Source of the DNA: an uncultured Clostridia bacterium
Lineage (GTDB): Bacteria > Bacillota > Clostridia > TANB77 > CAG-508
Assembly (NCBI GenBank): GCA_944387395.1
Contig: CALXEU010000017.1
Span: 92 to 64,091 of the forward strand
Length of the DNA: 64,000 bases
Direction: 5' to 3'
The translations under genes and the position numbers were made by a program. The first letter of the stretch is position 1. Every line of letters starts with the position of its first letter. A model generated the notes under the pieces. That model saw only the letters and a program-made list of their open reading frames with translations, did not search any database and was not told the DNA's origin. Below, one piece after another: positions 25,596 through 62,496 of the stretch.

Positions 25596-25607
25596 TATTC
25601 TTCGCAT

Positions 25608-25755
25608 TCCTTCTTAAGGAAAAATTTGATTGGAAAAGAATTAAATTTTGGCTAGGAAAGCAAGTTTTAAATTTATGAGGCGTACTCATTGTACGTTGAT
25701 TAAATTTAAAATGAAGATTGTGGGCGCCAAAATTGTAATTATTTTTCAATCCTTC
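25608..25755 (-). repeat. structured ~150-nt leader-like element, copy A (family of 3), upstream of spoIID
   Basis: About 85% identical to 55157..55315 and 61605..61752. Long closing helix (ATTGAAAAATAATTA...TAATTCTTTTCCAAT, plus ATTTTGGC/GCCAAAAT). Internal hairpin AAATTTA..ACGTAC-loop-GTACGT..TAAATTT. Ends at SD-like GAAGGAATG. Confidence 0.6.
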
Positions 25756-25773: not shown

Positions 25774-26505
25774 TTAACCTACTAATTTTCTTTTCATAGA
25801 AATTAGTATCTTTTTCTCTATTCTAGATACTTGAACTTGGCTTATTCCAAGCTTATTTGCAACTTCCGATTGTGTTTTGCCATAAAAATATCTTAACATA
25901 ACTATTTCTCTTTCTCTTTGAGGTAATTCTTCTATTAACTTATTTATTGTCAATTTATTTGCTATATTTAACTCTTCATCTTTATTATCTGGTATTATTT
26001 CCTCAATTGTACTTTGCTTATTTGAATCTCCACTATTTATTGGTTCGTTAAAAGAAGTTACAATTGTTGCAGAAGTTGCATCTATTGCAGCAGCAATTTC
26101 TTCCTTTGGAACTTTAAGTATTTTTGATATCTCTTCTATTTTTATTTCTTTTCCTTTTTTATCTAAATATTCTTTTTGTATCTGTCTTATCTTGTTAGAT
26201 AATTCTTTTATACTTCGGCTAACTTTTATTGTTCCATCATCTCTTATATATCTTTTTATCTCTCCCATTATAAATGGAACAGCATAGGTTGAAAGTTGAA
26301 CACTAAACTCATTATTAAAATTTTTTATTGATTTTATAAGTCCTATTGTTCCTACTTGTTTTAAATCTTCTAATTCAAACCCTCTACCTATAAATCTTTT
26401 AGCAATATTGTAGACTAGCCCTAAATTATTATCAACAAGGCTAGTCATTGCTTCATTATCTCCCGATTGTGCTTTAGCAATTTCTTCATAAGTGTTATTA
26501 TACAT
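25774..26505 (-). CDS. sigF: RNA polymerase sporulation sigma factor SigF
   Basis: STYAVPFIMGEIKRYIRDDGTIKVSRSIKEL is near-identical to the B. subtilis SigF region 2-3. Third gene of the spoIIA operon. Confidence 0.85.
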   Translation of the reverse strand: MYNNTYEEIAKAQSGDNEAMTSLVDNNLGLVYNIAKRFIGRGFELEDLKQVGTIGLIKSIKNFNNEFSVQLSTYAVPFIMGEIKRYIRDDGTIKVSRSIKELSNKIRQIQKEYLDKKGKEIKIEEISKILKVPKEEIAAAIDATSATIVTSFNEPINSGDSNKQSTIEEIIPDNKDEELNIANKLTINKLIEELPQREREIVMLRYFYGKTQSEVANKLGISQVQVSRIEKKILISMKRKLVG

Positions 26506-26619
26506 ATGCTTTCCTCTCTTTTTATAAATTACTGGACACTTATTTGATTTTTTATGTATTAATTGCTAAATATATTTCTAAATCTATTACTATATATAAT
26601 AAATATGTATTTTTACTTT

Positions 26620-27069
26620 CTATGTTTCTTCTTGCTTTTCCTTATTTATATATTTTTTCATTGTAATTTTTGTACCAATTTCTGGTATTGACTCTACCTT
26701 AAACTCATCCATAAAGCTTTCCATAATTGTAAATCCCATTCCAGATCTTTCTAGGTTTGCTTTTGTTGTATATAAAGGTTTTTTTGCTTGCTCTACATCT
26801 ACAATTCCTTTTCCAGTATCCGAAATCTGTATTTCTATGCTATTATCTTTTAATTTACATTCTATTTTTACTATACCTATTGTATTCTCATATCCATGAA
26901 TTATACAGTTTGTTACCGCCTCAGAAACAGCAGTTTTTATATCTGCAAGTTCATCTATTGTTGGGTCTAATTGAGAGGCAAAAGCTGCAACGCTAATTCT
27001 TGCAAAAGCCTCATTGGTGGATTTACTCGCAAATTCTAATTTCATTTCATTATCATATATTCCTAACAT
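26620..27069 (-). CDS. spoIIAB: anti-sigma F factor SpoIIAB (serine protein kinase)
   Basis: GHKL-type kinase motifs. Sits between the STAS protein and sigF. Confidence 0.85.
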
Positions 27070-27075
27070 ATTTTT

Positions 27076-27387
27076 TTATCCTCCACTATTGGAATTATTT
27101 TTAATATTCCGGCTTAACTCAAAAATTTTTTCTACTTGCTTATTTGCATTAGTTATTGCAAGTTCTCCTCCCAGCATTTTTATTAGCTTATATCTTCCTA
27201 GTAACATTCCTATTCCTGCACTGTCCATGAAAGTAACGTTACTAAAATCAAATATAGTTTTTCTAGGCAAAAATCTAGTAATTTCATTATCTATCTTCCT
27301 CCTTAGTTTGTCTGTTTGGTTATCATCAATGTCTTCTGAAAGTTTAAAAGTTAAAAGCTTGTCTTTTGGTACATAAATACAATCCAT
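27076..27387 (-). CDS. spoIIAA: anti-sigma F factor antagonist SpoIIAA (STAS domain)
   Basis: STAS fold with the phosphorylatable Ser context (FMDSAGIG). Confidence 0.85.
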   Translation of the reverse strand: MDCIYVPKDKLLTFKLSEDIDDNQTDKLRRKIDNEITRFLPRKTIFDFSNVTFMDSAGIGMLLGRYKLIKMLGGELAITNANKQVEKIFELSRNIKNNSNSGG

Positions 27388-48235: not shown

Positions 48236-49546
48236 CTATTGTAATAAATGTTGTTCTGTTGGATTTAAAACAATTTCATCATATAGTGCTATATTTTTCA
48301 TGCTATATATCTCAGAACTCGAAAATCCTAATTCTTTTAGTTCATCACTACTATATGAAGATACTATACTAAATTCTTCATTCTGGTTTTGTATTTTAAC
48401 AAGCATTTTATCGTAATAACCGTTTCTGTTTCTTATAACATAAGATAATTCTCCAATTTTATATATTGCTTCATTTGGAACTCTAAATCCCTCTTCGCTC
48501 CACCATATTATATCTATAGAAATTTTTCTGTAGGGAATTAAATCCTCCACATTTTCTGATATTTTTATTGCAATTGTTCTACTTTCGTCATCTTCTTCTA
48601 TTATATTAACTATTTCTGCTGAAACCTTAACTGAATTAGGTAACCTAATTTTTAAATCATCTCCAACATTTACACCTTTTGATTGTTCTGATTTTGAATT
48701 TAATATAATATAGCATTCATAATTGTTAATTATCTTTCCTGTTTCTTCGCTAGTTGGAATTATTTGAGAAGTCTTTAGATTTAAGTTTTCTAAAAATTTC
48801 TTATCCAAAGTACCAAAACTTTGTGGAGTTAAAACATTTTCTAATCCATCAACTCTATATGACACAACTCCACTTTCTGGCGCATTTACATACTCAGCAT
48901 TTGCAGTCAAACTTTCTTTGTATTGATTTTTTTGCTCAATTAGTTGTTTTAACTCCGAATTTGCAGGGCTATATTCTCCAGCTATTTCTGCCTTTTTATT
49001 TATATACGTATTTATATTGTTTTTGTAATCTTTTATTTTTTGAATTGAGTTTTCACCATCTAATGCTGCTATTTGTTCTTCTATCTGACTCTCAAGCAGT
49101 TTTATATCCCTTGGAAAAACTGTTTTCTGATTTTGCATTATTTCTTGTATTTGATTATCTATTTCTGCTATTTTTTCTTTTATTTGTTCTTCTCCTGATG
49201 TATAGTATCTATATATTGAATCTCCTTTTGCTACTCTTTCTCCTTCTTCTTTAATCCTTATCATTCCATTTTTATAGTTTTCGCCCTGAACCGTTATTTC
49301 ATCTCTAACAATATATGCTGTTACGCTTTCCCATTCAGAAATTTCTCCTGTAGTTACTAAAAATGTATCAGTTGGATTGCTTATAAAGCCTATTGTTGAA
49401 TATGCTATTATTATAATAAGAATGATTGCAAATACACTGAATATACCTAATTTTATTTTATTAACCTTTCTGCTTTTTTTCATATTATTTTCGTAAAAAT
49501 AATTTTTTTCTACATTTATTTTATTTTTTTCCACCTGTAATTTCAT
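48236..49546 (-). CDS. HlyD-like membrane fusion/adaptor-type protein (single N-terminal TM, coiled coil, beta domain)
   Basis: Architecture only. The start is placed at the ATGA overlap with the miaA stop codon. Confidence 0.45.
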   Translation of the reverse strand: MKLQVEKNKINVEKNYFYENNMKKSRKVNKIKLGIFSVFAIILIIIIAYSTIGFISNPTDTFLVTTGEISEWESVTAYIVRDEITVQGENYKNGMIRIKEEGERVAKGDSIYRYYTSGEEQIKEKIAEIDNQIQEIMQNQKTVFPRDIKLLESQIEEQIAALDGENSIQKIKDYKNNINTYINKKAEIAGEYSPANSELKQLIEQKNQYKESLTANAEYVNAPESGVVSYRVDGLENVLTPQSFGTLDKKFLENLNLKTSQIIPTSEETGKIINNYECYIILNSKSEQSKGVNVGDDLKIRLPNSVKVSAEIVNIIEEDDESRTIAIKISENVEDLIPYRKISIDIIWWSEEGFRVPNEAIYKIGELSYVIRNRNGYYDKMLVKIQNQNEEFSIVSSYSSDELKELGFSSSEIYSMKNIALYDEIVLNPTEQHLLQ

Positions 49547-50472
49547 TCCTTCCATATAGAACTAGAGTGTAAAATGGCTTTTATATTGTCTTCTATATTA
49601 TCTAATCCGTTAAGCCATTTTATATTCTCTATTTTTCTAAACCATGTAAGTTGTCTTTTGGCATATCTTCTTGTTTCCATTTTAATCTTTTCTATCATTT
49701 CTTCTTTTGTATATAAATTATTTATATAGTCAATAACTTCTTTATATCCAATAGCTTGAGCAGAAGTATATAATTCTTTTCCGTATTTTTTGTAGAGTCT
49801 TGTTACTTCATCAATTAATCCCGCTTCTAACATTAATTCCACTCTTTTATTAATTCTTTCATATAAAATTTCTCTAGGAAAATCTATTCCATAAACATCG
49901 TAATTATATGGTACTCCATTTTTTCTTGATTCTTCTTCTAATTGTGTTTTAGTTTTTCCTGTTTGTTTATATATTTCAAGAATCCTTAATATTCTTTTTT
50001 GATCATTTTGACTAATTTTTAAAGTTGCTTCTTTATCTATCTTCATTGCTTTTTCATATAAATATTGTAATCCATTATTTTTTGCAATTTCTTCTAATTC
50101 TCTTCTATATTCTAAATCAGTCTCAACTTCTGGATAATCTATTCCATATATTAGTGAATTTACATATAAGCCTGTCCCACCAACAACTATTGGTATTTTT
50201 TCTTTTTCTATTATTTCATTTATTGCAATTAGAGCGTTCTTCTTATATTCTGCAACGCTGTATCTTTTAACTGGTGATATTCCTCCTACCATGTAATGTT
50301 TTATTCCCTGCATTTCTTCTTTTGTTACTTTAGCAGTTCCTATATCCATTTCATCATAAATTTGCATTGAGTCTGCAGAAACTATTTCACCATTTATTTT
50401 TTTTGCAAGTTCAATGGATAATGCAGTTTTTCCGCTTGCAGTAGGGCCACATATTACTATTACTTTTTGCAT
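49543..50472 (-). CDS. miaA: tRNA dimethylallyltransferase MiaA
   Basis: P-loop GPTASGKT and the MiaA core. Confidence 0.9.
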   Translation of the reverse strand: MQKVIVICGPTASGKTALSIELAKKINGEIVSADSMQIYDEMDIGTAKVTKEEMQGIKHYMVGGISPVKRYSVAEYKKNALIAINEIIEKEKIPIVVGGTGLYVNSLIYGIDYPEVETDLEYRRELEEIAKNNGLQYLYEKAMKIDKEATLKISQNDQKRILRILEIYKQTGKTKTQLEEESRKNGVPYNYDVYGIDFPREILYERINKRVELMLEAGLIDEVTRLYKKYGKELYTSAQAIGYKEVIDYINNLYTKEEMIEKIKMETRRYAKRQLTWFRKIENIKWLNGLDNIEDNIKAILHSSSIWKE

Positions 50473-53783: not shown

Positions 53784-53858
53784 TGGTTGGGCTGGCTAGA
53801 TTCGAACTAGCGCATGCATGAGTCAAAGTCATGTGCCTTACCGCTTGGCTACAGCCCA
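53784..53858 (-). tRNA. tRNA-Gln (anticodon TTG)
   Basis: U1:A72 acceptor TGGGCTG/CAGCCCA. Anticodon arm CATGA-CTTTGAC-TCATG. T-arm GCTAG-TTCGAAT-CTAGC. Encoded CCA. Confidence 0.85.
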
Positions 53859-53876: not shown

Positions 53877-53954
53877 TGGGGTGGAATGTGGGACTCGAAC
53901 CCACGGTCTCCAGTGCCACAAACTGGCGCGTTAACCAACTACGCTAAATCCACC
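53877..53954 (-). tRNA. tRNA-His (anticodon GTG)
   Basis: Extra 5' G(-1). Anticodon arm CCAGT-TTGTGGC-ACTGG. T-arm GTGGG-TTCGAGT-CCCAC. Encoded CCA. Confidence 0.85.
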
Positions 53955-55156: not shown

Positions 55157-55315
55157 TTTTATTCACATTCCTTTCTAGGCATAAAACTGGTTGGAAAAGA
55201 ATTAAATTTTGACTAGAAAAATGAGTTTGAAATTTATGAGGCGTACTCCTTGTACGTTGATTAAATTTCAAATGAAATTTGACAACGTCAAAATTGTAAT
55301 TATTTTTCAACCTTT
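55157..55315 (-). repeat. structured ~150-nt leader-like element, copy B, upstream of the HIT gene
   Basis: Aligns with copies A and C. Closing helix GGTTGAAAAATAATTA / TAATTCTTTTCCAACC. Inner helix ATTTTGAC/GTCAAAAT covaries with A and C, which have GGC/GCC at the same positions. Ends GAAAGGAATGTGA. Confidence 0.6.
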
Positions 55316-55334
55316 CCTCCATTTTTATAACAAT

Positions 55335-57089
55335 CTAACAAAGTATAGCCTTAATTCTTCTAACTCCTGCAGAACTTGCTTCTTCTTTCTTTATTTTAAA
55401 TATTCCAAGTTCACTAGTATTTTTAACATGTGGACCTCCGCATAATTCTTTAGATATATTTCCAATAGAATAAACGGTTACTATATCTGGATATTTTTCT
55501 ATAAACATACATTCTGCACCTGATTTTATTGCATCTTCTTTGCTCATTTCTTCACATTTTACATCTAATCCTTCTTGTATCCACTTGTTTACTTGCTCTT
55601 CAACTTTTTGTTTTTCCTCATCTGTAAGTTTGTGGTCACAGTTAAAGTCAAAACGCATTCTTTCTTCTGTTATATTTGAGCCTTTTTGATGTATGTCTTT
55701 ATTTACTATTAATTTTAATGCTGCATTTAAAAGGTGTGTTGCTGTATGATATTTTGTTTCTATTTCGCTGTTTCCTGCAAGTCCACCTTTGAATTTATGT
55801 TCGCTTCCCATTCTTGATTTTTCTTGGTGTTCTTTGAATAGTTCATTAAATTTTTCAGCATCTATTTTATAGCCTTTTTCTGTTGCTAAGTCTTTTGTAA
55901 CCTCTGGTGGGAATCCATAAGTTTCATATAGTGTAAATAGGTCTTGTCCTGAAATTGTATCTTGTTTTTCATTTTGTAATTTTGTTATTATTTTATTAAA
56001 TTCTCTTTCTCCTCTTTCTAGAGTTTTGCCGAATTTATCTTTCTCTTCTAATATTACATTTTTTATTCTATCTTTATTTTTTTCTAATTCTGGATACATT
56101 TCTTTTAGTATGTCTATATTTAAGTCAATTAATTCAGAAAGTTTATTTAAATCTATTTGTAATTTTCTTAAATGTCTTACCATTCTACGAATTAATCTTC
56201 TTAAAATGTATCCTCTATCTACATTGCTTGGTATTCCACCGTCTAGAATTATCATCATACTAGCACGTAAGTGTTCTGCTACTATTCTTCTGCTAGCGAT
56301 ATCATCTACTTCTGAAAGTTCTTCTAATTTTTCCATTATTGGACTAAATATTTCTATTTCAAATGGTGTTTGTTTACCTTGTAATAACATTGCCATTCTT
56401 TCTAATCCTAATCCTGTATCTACATTGTGTTGTTTTAATTTTGTATAATGTCCATCTTTATCTTTAAAATATTCCATAAATACGTTGTTCCATATTTCTA
56501 CATATTTACCGCATCCACATGATGGATTACATTTTTCTGAGCATTTTGGCTTTCCTGTATCATAAAACATTTCTGTGTCTGGTCCACATGGTCCTGTCTC
56601 GCCTGCAATCCACCAGTTGTCATCTTTTCCAAAATAGTAAATTCTCTCTTCCGGTATTCCTGCTTTTTTCCAACATTCTGCAGTTACTGTATCTCTTGGG
56701 CAATCTTCGTCTCCAGCAAAGCAAGTTACTGATATTTTTTCAGCTGGAATTTCTAATTCCTTTGTTAGAAATTCATAACTCATTGCAATTGATTCTTCTT
56801 TAAAATAGTCTCCTAATGACCAGTTTCCTAACATTTCAAAATATGTTAAATGACGATTATCTCCTACTTCGTCAATATCATTTGTACGTAAGCATTTTTG
56901 ATAGTCTGTAAGCCTTGTTCCTTCTGGATGCTTTTTTCCTAGTAAATATGGTACTAATGGTTGCATTCCAGCTGTTGTAAATAAAACTGATGGATCGTTT
57001 TCTGGTATTAGTGGGCTACTTGGTATTATTTTATGTCCATGCTCTTCAAAAAATTTTAAGTATTTATTTCTTATTTCTATTGCCTTCAT
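55335..57089 (-). CDS. alanine--tRNA ligase-like protein lacking the C-terminal (C-Ala) domain
   Basis: AlaRS catalytic and tRNA-recognition domains, then the editing-domain core (H..THLL ... CGGPHV). Only 584 aa against ~870 for canonical AlaS. Confidence 0.7.
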   Translation of the reverse strand: MKAIEIRNKYLKFFEEHGHKIIPSSPLIPENDPSVLFTTAGMQPLVPYLLGKKHPEGTRLTDYQKCLRTNDIDEVGDNRHLTYFEMLGNWSLGDYFKEESIAMSYEFLTKELEIPAEKISVTCFAGDEDCPRDTVTAECWKKAGIPEERIYYFGKDDNWWIAGETGPCGPDTEMFYDTGKPKCSEKCNPSCGCGKYVEIWNNVFMEYFKDKDGHYTKLKQHNVDTGLGLERMAMLLQGKQTPFEIEIFSPIMEKLEELSEVDDIASRRIVAEHLRASMMIILDGGIPSNVDRGYILRRLIRRMVRHLRKLQIDLNKLSELIDLNIDILKEMYPELEKNKDRIKNVILEEKDKFGKTLERGEREFNKIITKLQNEKQDTISGQDLFTLYETYGFPPEVTKDLATEKGYKIDAEKFNELFKEHQEKSRMGSEHKFKGGLAGNSEIETKYHTATHLLNAALKLIVNKDIHQKGSNITEERMRFDFNCDHKLTDEEKQKVEEQVNKWIQEGLDVKCEEMSKEDAIKSGAECMFIEKYPDIVTVYSIGNISKELCGGPHVKNTSELGIFKIKKEEASSAGVRRIKAILC

Positions 57090-59302: not shown

Positions 59303-61534
59303 ATGGAATTCAATCAATGGAACAGATTTGAAAAGGGTGAATGGACAAAGGAAATAGATGTAAGAGACTTTATTCAAAAAAATTATACTCCATATACTGG
59401 AGATGATAGCTTTTTGGTTGGTCCTACTGAAAAAACAAATAATCTTTGGAATAAGGTTTTAAATTTATATGAAAAAGAAAAGGAAAATGGAGTTTTAGAT
59501 GTTGATGTAAAAACTCCATCTGGAATTAATAGATATGAAGCAGGATATATCGACAAAAATCTTGAAGAAATAGTTGGTCTTCAAACAGATGCCCCATTAA
59601 AAAGAGCAATTATGCCAAATGGGGGTATTCGAATTGTTGAAAAATCTTGTGAAGCATATGGATATAAAGTAGATGATGAAATTGAATATGTTTATCATAA
59701 TTTAAGAAAAACACATAATGATGGTGTTTTTGATGTATATACTCCAGACATTAGAGTTGCACGTTCTCATCATTTATTAACCGGTCTTCCAGATGGATAT
59801 GGACGTGGTCGTATAATCGGAGATTACAGAAGAGTTTCCTTATATGGTGTTGATGCACTAATTGCAGAGAAAAAGGAAGAATTAAATATTTTAGATGTAG
59901 ACGAATTTACAGAGCAAGTAGTTCGTGATAGAGAAGAAATATCTGAACAAATAAAAGCATTAGAAGATTTAAAGAAAATGGCTTTAAAATATGGATTTGA
60001 CATTTCAGTTCCAGCAAAAGATTCTAAAGAAGCTGTTCAATGGCTATACTTTGCTTATTTAGGAGCTGTAAAAGACCAAAATGGTGCTGCTATGTCTATT
60101 GGAAGAATTTCTACCTTCTTAGATATTTATTTTGAAAGAGACTTAAAAGCAGGTACAATTACAGAAGAAGAAGTTCAAGAGCTTATGGATCATTTTGTTA
60201 TGAAATTAAGAATGGTACGTTTCTTAAGAACTCCAGAATATAATGAATTATTCTCTGGAGATCCTGTTTGGGTTACTGAAAGTATTGGTGGTATGGGAAT
60301 TGATGGTAGAACATTAGTTACAAAAAACTCATTTAGAATGCTTCACACACTTGAGACTCTTGGTGCTGCACCAGAACCTAATTTAACTGTTTTATGGTCA
60401 AAAAATCTACCAAAGAGTTTTAAAGATTATTGTGCAAAAATTTCTATTAAAACATCTTCTATTCAATATGAAAATGACGACTTAATGAGAATTACTTTAG
60501 GAGATGATTATGGAATAGCATGCTGTGTTTCTGCAATGAAGATTGGTAAACAAATGCAATTCTTTGGAGCAAGAGCAAATTTAGCAAAAGCATTACTTTA
60601 TGCAATTAATGGTGGTAGAGATGAAAATACAGGAAAACAAGTAACACCTCTATTTGCCCCTATTACTTCTGAATATTTAGACTATGATGAGGTAATCAAA
60701 AAATATGATCAAATGTTAGATTATGTTGCTAAAATATACATGAAATCTTTAAATGCAATTCATTATATGCATGATAAATATTCTTATGAGGCATTAGAGA
60801 TGGCTCTACATGATAAAGATATCTTAAGAACTATGGCTTGTGGAATTGCTGGTCTTTCAGTTGTAGCAGATTCCCTATCTGCAATAAAATATGCAAAAGT
60901 AAAAGTTATTCGTGATGAAACAGGACTTGCAAAAGACTATGTTATTGAAGGTGATTTTCCTAAATACGGAAATGACGATGATAGAGTTGATGAGATTGCC
61001 GTAAGTATTGTAAAATCATTTATGAAAAAATTACAAGGACATTACACATATAGAGGCTCAAAACCAACACTTTCAATATTAACAATTACCTCAAATGTTG
61101 TATATGGAAAAGCAACAGGAAATACTCCAGATGGTCGTAGAGCAGGTGCTCCATTCGGACCTGGTGCAAACCCACTACACGGAAGGGATTCTCAAGGTGC
61201 ACTTTCTGTTATGAATACTATTGCTAAGCTTCCATATGAGTATTCAGAAGATGGAATATCTTTCACTTTCTCGATTACACCTGGAACTTTAGGTCATGAA
61301 ATGCAAACAAGAATTGATAACTTAGTTGGAATGCTTGATGGATATTTTATCCAAACAGGACACCATATAAATGTTAATGTATTTGATAGAAGTCTACTTG
61401 AAGATGCAATGGAACATCCTGAAAAATATCCTCAACTTACAATCCGTGTTTCTGGATATGCTGTAAACTTTGTAAAATTAACTAGAGAGCAACAATTAGA
61501 TGTTATAAATAGAACTATTCATGAAAGAATTTAG
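59303..61534 (+). CDS. pflB: formate C-acetyltransferase (pyruvate formate-lyase)
   Basis: 743 aa. Glycyl-radical C-terminus (RVSGYAV) and the PFL active-site Cys pair (CCVS). Confidence 0.9.
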
Positions 61535-61604
61535 TTTAAACAATTCAAATTATTATATGGAGCCAAAGTATTGATATTTGGCTCCTAAATTTAAGGATAA
61601 CAAA

Positions 61605-61752
61605 GGTTGAAAAATAATTAGGATTTTGGCGTTGTCAATCTTCATTTTTAATTTAATCAACGTACAATCAGTACGTCTCATAAATTTAAAATTCGCTTTC
61701 CTAGCCAAAATTTAATTATTTCCCAACCGAATTTGTGCCTTTGGGAAGGAAT
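61605..61752 (+). repeat. structured ~150-nt leader-like element, copy C, between pflB and pflA
   Basis: Same family as copies A and B. The 3' strand of the closing helix (TTCCCAACC) can alternatively pair with the SD region (TTGGGAAGG). Confidence 0.6.
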
Positions 61753-61761
61753 GAGAAAAAA

Positions 61762-62496
61762 ATGGAACAAAATTCACAATTAGAACTAACTTGCCCTATT
61801 CACTCTTTCGAAAGTCTTGGTGCAGTTGATGGACCTGGAATAAGATTTGTAATTTTTACACAGGGGTGTAATTTAAGATGTAAATATTGTCAGAATAGGG
61901 ATACTTGGTGTCATAGTGCTGGAACAGTATATACAGTTAAAGAAGTTTTATCAAAAATTTTACGTTATAAAAATTATATTGTGCCTTCTGGCGGCGGTGT
62001 TACTGTAAGTGGTGGTGAACCTCTTATTCATATACAATTTTTAATTGCTTTATTTACTGAATTAAAGAAGTCTAGTATTCACACTGCAATAGACACATCT
62101 GGTGTTTTTTATCTTACAGATGAAATGAAGAAATTAATAGATTTAACTGATTTGTTTTTATTAGATATAAAATGTATTAACGATGAAATTTGTAAAGATT
62201 TAACTGGCGTATCTAATCAGAAAGAACTTGAATTTGCAAAATATTTAAGTAATATCGGAAAGCCTATGTGGATTAGACAAGTTTTAGTTCCGGGTTACAC
62301 AGATAAAGAAGAAGACTTAATAAAACTAAAAGAATTTCTTGACAGTTTAAGAACTGTACAGAATATAGAAATTCTTCCATATCATGATATGGGAAAACAT
62401 AAATGGACTGAACTAGGATTTTCTTATCCTTTAGAAGGAAATAGAACTGCAAATCGAGAAGATGTTGATAGAACTAAAAAGATTTTAGGAATTTAA
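61762..62496 (+). CDS. pflA: pyruvate formate-lyase activating enzyme
   Basis: Radical SAM CNLRCKYCQN and the PflA family. Start placed at MEQNSQ, which is 10 nt after the SD-like GGAAGGAATGAG. The track's upstream ATG at 61735 lies inside the repeat element. Confidence 0.85.
   Translation: MEQNSQLELTCPIHSFESLGAVDGPGIRFVIFTQGCNLRCKYCQNRDTWCHSAGTVYTVKEVLSKILRYKNYIVPSGGGVTVSGGEPLIHIQFLIALFTELKKSSIHTAIDTSGVFYLTDEMKKLIDLTDLFLLDIKCINDEICKDLTGVSNQKELEFAKYLSNIGKPMWIRQVLVPGYTDKEEDLIKLKEFLDSLRTVQNIEILPYHDMGKHKWTELGFSYPLEGNRTANREDVDRTKKILGI

Follow-up and report, generated by a model that had tools for sequence, protein, structure and literature searches.

REP2 of Neisseria and an inverted repeat (IR) of Borrelia plasmids carry a ribosome-binding site (RBS) together with an ATG and stand immediately upstream of many genes (Morelle 2003, Dunn 1994; reviewed in PMC3184786). 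The Correia, ERIC and BOX repeats are co-transcribed hairpins that act on mRNA via RNase III or RNase E or by transcript stabilisation (PMC2649163, PMC3049150). The element described here occurs in three copies (A, B and C) in a 64,000-nucleotide stretch of contig CALXEU010000017.1 from an uncultured Clostridia bacterium, hereafter the window; copy C lies between pflB and pflA (PFL-activating enzyme) and had been taken in an earlier note for a riboswitch- or attenuator-like platform controlling pflA translation or pflB-to-pflA readthrough. The analysis makes it probable that copy C is a co-transcribed interspersed repeat with a portable RBS, a member of an undescribed family of uncultured low-GC gut Clostridia; what stands at the pflB–pflA junction is no riboswitch dedicated to pfl.

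The core of the repeat (ca. 125 nt) is predicted to fold as a long imperfect rod, composed of a closing helix (P1) of ca. 26 bp, which is interrupted by two conserved mismatches and a bulged C, of two internal loops and, at the apex, of a 5-bp hairpin; comparison of the copies strongly supports this rod-like hairpin. The minimum free energy fold of copy C (61595–61775) was obtained at −36.6 kcal/mol, z = −2.3, and contained the closing helix, an inner AU-rich helix, the CGUAC/GUACG apical hairpin and a local CCUU/AAGG hairpin at the Shine–Dalgarno sequence (SD). All pairings named in the earlier note were found on direct reading: the 5' strand GGTTGAAAAATAA (from 61605) with the 3' strand TTATTTCCCAACC (to 61728), the 7-bp alternative TTCCCAA/TTGGGAA, the local CCTT/AAGG hairpin at the SD and, in copy A, the analogous TTCCTT-aag-AAGGAA.

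A structure of 44 pairs was evaluated on an alignment of 98 copies: 97.0% of the cells were paired (90.8% in shuffles); compensatory changes, on both sides of a pair, were found in 24 of the 44 pairs, 12 of the 23 pairs of the closing helix among them, and amounted to 208 cells (35 expected); none of 500 shuffles matched any of the five structure measures, and pairing fell to 24–53% when the partner was slid by 1–3 columns. Covarying columns were occupied as follows: 65/105 – G-C 62, A-U 19, U-A 12; 39/125 – G-C 71, A-U 22; 15/149 and 16/148 (outermost) – G-C, A-U and U-A all present. The covarying fold was also returned by RNAalifold on the family alignment. Copies that were recovered by the profile and did not belong to the seed set had compensatory apical stems (CATAC/GTATG, TGTGC/GCACA, CGTGC/GCATG) and kept the CCUC-type 3' loop. 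A possible pairing of apex and tail, AAUCA:UGAUU, was noticed by eye, the apex being the search seed.

In the window the three copies were located by matches to the 27-nt 5' arm with at most 3 mismatches (0 expected); from AAGG to the start codon they align with 80% column identity, and a profile built from the 98 copies gave no further copy there. A short match to the tail alone, at 49541–49552, looks like chance and was discarded. A genome scan with the exact apex pattern, one genome per species, gave at least 114 loci, nearly all in gut metagenome-assembled genomes (MAGs) of human, rabbit and chicken origin that bear the label uncultured Clostridia, Clostridiales or Clostridium; the first 80 matches listed come from at least 44 assemblies. 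The 98-copy profile, after removal of other-strand matches to the same palindromes, gave at least 138 unique copies in ca. 110 loci, often 2–4 per 8 kb. In Rfam 15 no family was matched at gathering score or with E ≤ 1 (best matches in 61500–61800, E 1.8–9), the only Rfam matches in the window being three tRNA genes. The apex pattern was not matched in viral contigs; a literature search by sequence strings gave chance matches only, and a keyword search on Clostridia, MITEs (miniature inverted-repeat transposable elements) and RBS gave nothing specific.

The family is heterogeneous. Tandem, duplicated or partial adjacent copies were seen at L022:181–286 and 347–452, L060:2525–2715, L038:6762–6956 and in L024. 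In one subfamily (L002, L025, L051, L075) the second internal loop is longer by 7 inserted nt (GCGCAGTGGCG context; columns 46–52 of alignment A2), another (L008, L015, L022, L026) has GACTGCTC in place of CCTAGTC, and a change of G.A to U.U recurs at the base of the second internal loop (GGCG...AGCC vs GGCT...TGCC). Elements with GC-richer and very different outer stems (L017, L072 and L111, in Eubacterium/Roseburia MAGs; L058, L090, L084, L101) keep the apical motif AATCAA-CGTAC-loop-GTACG-YYTCAT and were found only because the apex served as the search seed; they may be distant subfamilies in other Clostridia lineages.

Placement was counted for 112 unique full-length copies, genes being represented by open reading frames (ORFs) of at least 80 amino acids: of those between co-directional genes, 77 were sense and 2 antisense; 13 lay between convergent and 4 between divergent genes; for the other 16 a single flanking ORF only was called. 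Two forms were distinguished. Long copies have a 3' tail of consensus AGATTTGTGCCTTAGGAAGGAATGWGATWAAAW; 61–63 of them finish 0–2 nt before a start codon, with AAGGAATG 5–10 nt upstream of it. Short copies lack the tail, and 33 of 41 start within 10 nt of the stop codon of the upstream gene; in the TAAT|TTTG...CAAA|TTA subfamily the TAA of the repeat is itself that stop codon. A strong SD-like motif was present within the 15 nt before the UUG at the start of the repeat in 37 of 63 long and 4 of 45 short copies. The neighbours, as judged from the 14 largest clusters of neighbouring ORFs, are ordinary, unrelated housekeeping genes (M23 peptidase, ABC transporter, grpE, hrcA, dnaK, ackA, pyk and a MiaB-like gene among them). 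The window itself has a GC content of 25–32%; its GC and AT skews track gene strand, with a reversed block at ca. 36–40 kb, and since the GC skew simply tracks gene strand, orientation with respect to replication and to transcription is inseparable in the window.

Comparison with related loci points to an insertion. The repeat was absent from ca. 3.7 kb at each of 80 metagenome loci encoding PflA relatives (66–80% identity; 0 of 80) and from the pflB–pflA junctions of L195, L196 and L197–L199 (the three closest homologues being 86, 83 and 81% identical), i.e. from 85 of 85 loci in total (66–86% identity); L200, which stems from another sample of this species, has copy C in identical form. Junctions in the relatives range from 12 nt (TAA-AAGGACTTAAAT-ATG) to ca. 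190 nt with a GC-rich terminator, and TTTAAGGA or AAAGGAG stands 7–8 nt 5' of the pflA ATG; L193 and L194 have a solo tail. The window sequence to the left of the repeat, AAGGATAACAA, corresponds to the SD and spacer that stand directly before the ATG in the relatives, and the repeat is therefore read as having been inserted 3' of the native SD of pflA and ahead of its start codon. In L195 the pflB-distal hairpin and TTTAAGGAG are kept, followed by a 40-nt palindrome and then AAGAAAAAAATG. In the same locus (L195:470–528) the palindrome, AATTAATCAATTAAATAGATTATTTATAATTGATTA, lies between AAGGAG and ATG, and no SD was seen near the start codon; it is possibly a decayed remnant of the repeat, or a hairpin bridging SD and start codon.

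The site of copy B was compared through HIT proteins of the same 90%-identity cluster, and three states were observed: the full repeat behind the AlaRS-like gene (window); a near-identical repeat and gene with a different upstream region, downstream of metK (L201:190–345 vs window 55315–55400); and a 45-nt junction in which only TCAAAATTTGAACCT and the tail are left (L204–L209). In L201 the homology to copy B starts exactly at AAGGTTG, which sets the 5' boundary of the repeat, and the region upstream of it has a promoter-like TATAAT and its own AAGGAG. Other derivatives in MAGs consist of 5' arm and tail (L062, L055), have the apex deleted (L086) or are reduced to AAGGTTGAAAAATG (L066). These states show that the hairpin is readily lost with retention of the tail; the copies appear to act as recombination points; recombination between copies, as they suggest, reshuffles the upstream regions of genes.

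The 3' strand of the closing helix is at the same time a latent anti-SD. The duplex energies for copy C were: 3' strand:SD – −10.3 kcal/mol; closing helix – −24.9 kcal/mol; forcing the 7-bp alternative cost 7.8 kcal/mol, and its population relative to the closing helix was ca. 3e-6. For the 61 long copies the mean 3' strand:SD duplex was −8.4 kcal/mol, as compared with −5.0 ± 2.1 kcal/mol for shuffled 3' strands and −6.5 kcal/mol for the native SD windows of other genes, and RNAalifold on the long forms gave the consensus pairing UUCUUUU/GAAAGGA. With the helix free to form, the SD was unpaired with a probability of 0.65 (tail alone, 0.66); when the upstream flank was kept single-stranded together with the initial 18 nt of the 5' strand, this value fell to 0.22, and 43 of the 61 copies dropped by more than 0.2 while none rose. 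In silico, sequestration of the SD of copy C would thus require a blocked 5' strand. Tail-less short copies have this 3' strand as well, and the 7-bp TTTCCC/GGGAAA match of copy C was not repeated, as judged by eye, in either of the two other tail-bearing TTTCCC variants (L005, L076). Since the anti-SD complementarity is family-wide and the helix is preferred, the layout is regarded as a property of the family, as a conditional state only; any switching by the repeat would likewise be conditional.

At the pflB–pflA junction (Table 1) the likely start of pflA is ATG 61762 rather than the GTG at 61735, because it keeps the reading frame, is preceded by the tail SD and gives an N-terminus that matches the 86%-identical homologue L195. 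The GTG is in frame with this ATG and has no SD of its own. The earlier note had held the longer ORF to be probably an artefact that starts inside the element; the first part agrees with the present reading, and the second is to be corrected in that the GTG belongs to the tail rather than to the hairpin. The hairpin upstream of the repeat, which had been called weak, has a 9-bp stem of −14.4 kcal/mol without a U-tract (by folding); it is native to the locus, lies outside the repeat and is kept in the closest relative, L195, with a different loop. GC-rich, U-tailed terminators occupy its place in other relatives. For the ratio of pflB to pflA transcript this pflB-distal hairpin is a better candidate than the repeat. 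A scan of 61300–61900 gave no terminator-like site (GC-rich stem plus U-tract), and a scan of the same interval for sigma-70-like promoters gave none on the sense strand. Of the platform proposed in the earlier note, the helix, the SD in the tail and the complementarity of 3' strand and SD, the last family-wide, were borne out; its role as a regulator dedicated to pflA was not, in view of the unrelated genes that follow the other window copies (SpoIID, HIT) or lie beside or downstream of copies in MAGs (pyruvate kinase, grpE and acetate kinase among them), the absence from the 85 relatives, the core deletions, the minute population of the alternative pairing and the missing terminator.

Table 1. 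Features of the pflB–pflA junction and of related sites in the window.
Feature	Position	Strand	Support or remark
pflB, upstream gene	59303–61534	+	Pfam PFL-like 6e-221, Gly_radical 3e-36
Hairpin 3' of pflB, GGAGCCAAAG with TTTGGCTCC	61559–61568 with 61577–61585	+	folding
AAGGA, displaced native SD of pflA	61593–61597	+	ca. 165 nt from start codon
Copy C core, rod-like hairpin AAGGTTGAAAAA...TTTCCCAACC	61603–61728 (126 nt)	+	nhmmer 8e-33, fold, family covariation; begins AAGGTTGAAAAATAATTAGG, ends TTTAATTATTTCCCAACC
P1 closing helix, 5' strand	61605–61631	+	P1 duplex −24.9 kcal/mol
Apex: internal loop AATCAA/TCTCAT around hairpin CGTAC-AATCA-GTACG	61655–61681	+	
P1 3' strand, pyrimidine-rich latent anti-SD	61700–61728	+	includes TTCCCAA 61720–61726
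Long-form 3' tail GAATTTGTGCCTTTGGGAAGGAATGAGAAAAAA (33 nt)	61729–61761	+	common to copies A, B, C and 61–63 long copies
GTG, probable miscalled start of pflA	61735	+	within tail
Local SD hairpin CCTT/AAGG	61738–61741 with 61746–61749	+	within tail
TTGGGAA arm	61741–61747	+	within tail
Replacement SD GGGAAGGA	61743–61750	+	within tail
pflA (PFL-activating enzyme)	61762–62496	+	Pfam Radical_SAM, Fer4_12; likely start ATG 61762
Copy A	25596–25754 (core 25628–25754, tail 25596–25627)	−	between sigF-like gene and SpoIID-domain gene
Copy B	55157–55314 (core 55189–55314, tail 55157–55188)	−	between AlaRS-like gene and HIT-family gene
spoIIAA/spoIIAB/sigF-like operon	25774–27387	−	directly upstream of copy A
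False ORF in copy A, 80 aa	25507–25749	−	
False ORF in copy B, 75 aa	55095–55322	−	
Upstream ATG, miscalled start of SpoIID-domain gene	25607	−	
tRNA genes	34–106, 53787–53858, 53880–53953	−	Rfam

The spoIIAA/spoIIAB/sigF-like operon next to copy A implies that the organism is a spore-former or descended from one. The repeat also gives rise to spurious gene calls: besides the false ORFs and miscalled starts of Table 1, in L018 the UUG frame of the repeat is fused in frame to pyruvate kinase.

On the reading preferred here, each copy would be transcribed as part of the operon of its host genes, and the long form would add a tail of ca. 33 nt with its own SD. As the repeat sits between the original AAGGA and ATG 61762, pflA would be translated from the SD of the repeat. 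With the closing helix formed, this SD would be as accessible as in the tail alone; the 3' strand would mask it only if the 5' strand were held open, possibly by a ribosome arriving from pflB or by one loading on the orphaned native SD with its adjoining UUG. Comparison with Correia, ERIC and BOX suggests that the long helix is likely to be cut by a double-strand RNase or else to hold up exonucleases; in both cases the pflB and pflA segments of the mRNA would have separate fates. Presumably the family spread by mobility or recombination, as an element that is selfish or near-neutral; the downstream gene can do without the hairpin core but, once the insertion has taken place, would not do without the tail. 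Survivorship in compact operons would explain much of the placement: the long form would be tolerated only with its SD 8–10 nt from the start codon, the short form only upstream of a native SD.

Several observations weigh against this picture. Flank-to-flank BLAST among the loci gave deletion derivatives or diverged flanks and no clean empty site with a target-site duplication; no parent transposase was found, so that mobility rests on distribution and not on an observed event; the invariance of the apex is partly a matter of ascertainment, the apex itself being the search pattern; G.U and A.C combinations were counted as 54 vs 118, two columns dominating, which does not indicate the folding strand; and the near-exclusive sense orientation extends to short forms without the SD tail. 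That G.U is not in excess over A.C is what selection on DNA pairing would give, and together with the long terminal inverted arms, the many copies, the subfamilies and the tandem and truncated copies it speaks for a purely DNA-level element, a MITE or REP-like palindrome moved as double- or single-stranded DNA by a trans-acting transposase, with an incidental RNA fold. Such an element is nevertheless rather improbable: neither a target-site duplication nor a related transposase was found among the at least 114 loci (none in the 14 largest clusters of neighbouring ORFs, judged from their sequences and not from a Pfam scan), the termini are not fixed, since their outermost pairs covary, and the SD tail is a feature of RNA and translation. 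Genes of Firmicutes are co-oriented with replication to ca. 75–85%, and 2 antisense copies of 79 is a stronger bias than a preference for one replication strand would lead one to expect. No consistent direct repeats were seen in the flanks, only, by eye, an imperfect repeat internal to the element, GGTTGAAAAAT...GATTAAAAAT; a match resembling a target-site duplication in copies A and B, AAGG/GAAAGG, fails in the other copies. The sense bias bears on two further explanations. Survivorship fails to account for it in the short forms, and therefore a function or a transcription-linked mechanism of insertion may exist. One possibility is a domesticated RNA module whose conserved internal loops and apex are recognised by a host protein, or act as a small ribozyme or a site of processing, the copies making up a post-transcriptional regulon or mRNA processing sites; the asymmetries conserved within covarying helices (the bulged C, the A.C and U.C mismatches, the loops GUUGUC/UCCUA and AUCAA/CCUCA) would suit it, as would the CCUC-type loop that divergent subfamilies keep while the apical stem covaries. 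We consider it unlikely, given the inflated conservation of the apex, the deletion of cores in close relatives and the absence of a match to any Rfam ribozyme; we know of no partner protein or cleavage for the repeat. The other, to which we likewise give a low probability, somewhat below that of the module, is that the repeat is an RNA-level mobile cassette of a new class, confined to the sense strand, a self-folding insulator hairpin with a portable RBS that homes to gene boundaries, or else a genome-wide post-transcriptional regulon. As a cassette, its long forms may land between SD and start codon and its short forms at stop codons, some subfamilies supplying the stop, and homing may be linked to transcription or translation or guided by base pairing; as a regulon, the copies may be read through their conserved loops by a protein or an RNase.

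Closer to the proposal of the earlier note is a conditional translational switch, in which the closing helix and the anti-SD:SD duplex would be alternative states that tune translation of the downstream gene, here pflA, the balance being shifted by temperature, by a ligand or by ribosomes moving along the 5' strand. The family-wide complementarity, stronger than in both sets of controls, its recovery by RNAalifold, the loss of SD accessibility on blocking the 5' strand, and the native SD and UUG that most long copies have where the 5' strand begins are all in keeping with it. We hold it to be very doubtful all the same: in copy C the closing helix is ahead by 7.8 kcal/mol and is made earlier in transcription than the SD, the genes downstream of the copies have unrelated functions, close relatives have lost the core and kept the gene, covariation of 3' strand and SD was not found beyond copy C, and the 3' strand is the same in copies without a tail, so that the complementarity may be a by-product of the purine-rich 5' strand. 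That the UUG at the start of the core, following the native SD, opens a conserved peptide of ca. 47 codons, i.e. that the repeat is a small protein gene or upstream ORF, is hardly credible. In 52 of the 98 copies the UUG frame runs through the core without a stop (the other five frames do so in 0–4); in copy C, however, it stops after 4 codons, and in 19 of the 98 copies a compensatory stem change creates a TAA. Conservation is equal at the three codon positions, the peptide is wholly different in divergent subfamilies that keep the pairs, the stop has no set distance from the downstream ATG (scatter from −32 to +26 nt and beyond), and the openness of the frame is independent of the upstream SD. 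A coding role was therefore rejected and the element treated as non-coding.

The repeat accounts for systematic annotation errors in these MAGs and allows their correction (the false ORFs of 75–80 amino acids, the starts at 61735 and 25607, the L018 fusion). With 24 covarying pairs it is a well-supported candidate for a new structured-RNA family in a little-studied group of gut Clostridia. A selfish repeat, it would appear, can enter the most sensitive few nucleotides of an operon, the insertion being tolerated because the repeat brings its own SD, and the gene would then depend on the tail even after loss of the hairpin; the copies would also be recombination points that place genes behind new upstream regions, as in L201. 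A hairpin combined with its own RBS resembles designed genetic insulators and could be of practical interest. For the regulation of pflA at this locus, the pflB-distal hairpin and promoters are to be considered, not a riboswitch.

Among known systems, riboswitch expression platforms and fourU/ROSE thermometers share with the repeat a pyrimidine stretch, here UUCUUUUCC, that can pair with the SD (GGAAGGA) while a competing helix decides. Alternative pairings do exist family-wide, yet in copy C the off pairing is minor by ca. 8 kcal/mol; the repeat differs from such SD-sequestering switches also in the lack of a conserved aptamer tied to gene function and of conservation at orthologous loci. A riboswitch or dedicated leader, expected before related genes and at orthologous sites, is not supported: the genes are unrelated, and the repeat is missing from all 80 PflA-relative loci and from L195, L196 and L197–L199. 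An intrinsic terminator or attenuator was discarded as well, with no terminator-like site in 61300–61900. As in MITEs, terminal inverted repeats are present (complementary arms of ca. 27 nt), though their outermost pairs covary; target-site duplications and true empty sites were not found, the candidate empty sites being internal deletions, and no parent insertion sequence (IS) was seen in the 14 largest clusters of neighbouring ORFs. Integron attC sites carry R'' (RYYYAAC) 5' and R' (GTTRRRY) 3' and lie inside cassette arrays; the repeat has the reverse polarity (GGTTG...CAACC) and core housekeeping genes at its flanks. REP/REPIN sequences mobilised by RAYT, for which the genome holds a RAYT gene, are palindromes that are short and GC-rich and show a conserved 5' GTAG; the repeat differs in composition, being AT-rich and of ca. 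125 nt, and no GTAG head was seen on reading, no formal motif search having been made. Ends of IS200/IS605 type were rejected, there being no constant target in the left flank.

Correia, ERIC and BOX-type repeats are found in either orientation, and in Correia and ERIC the termini are defined and TA is duplicated; the present repeat is set apart from them by its orientation (77 sense vs 2 antisense), its covarying outermost pairs and its SD-bearing tail, and no duplication was found. It is like Correia (CREE/NEMIS, Neisseria), ERIC (enterobacteria) and BOX/RUP/SPRITE (pneumococcus) in being intergenic, of high copy number and 100–150 nt long, with long hairpins (PMC2649163, PMC3049150), and like BOX it induces false ORF calls by gene finders. 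With REP2 and the Borrelia IR (PMC3184786) it shares an interspersed unit of ca. 120–150 nt with internal stem-loops, placed immediately upstream of unrelated ORFs, and an RBS at a fixed distance from the start codon. The repeat is not known to resemble either in sequence, no comparison with a REP2 sequence having been made. REP2 carries a promoter, and the repeat has none on the sense strand in 61300–61900; it is one long closing hairpin whose 3' strand is complementary to its own SD, it lies inside operons between the native SD and the start codon, and its tail-less form stands right after stop codons. Four features thus distinguish the repeat both from REP2/IR and from Correia/ERIC/BOX: the near-exclusive sense orientation, the covarying termini, the placement between SD and start codon and the complementarity of the SD to a helix strand of the repeat itself.

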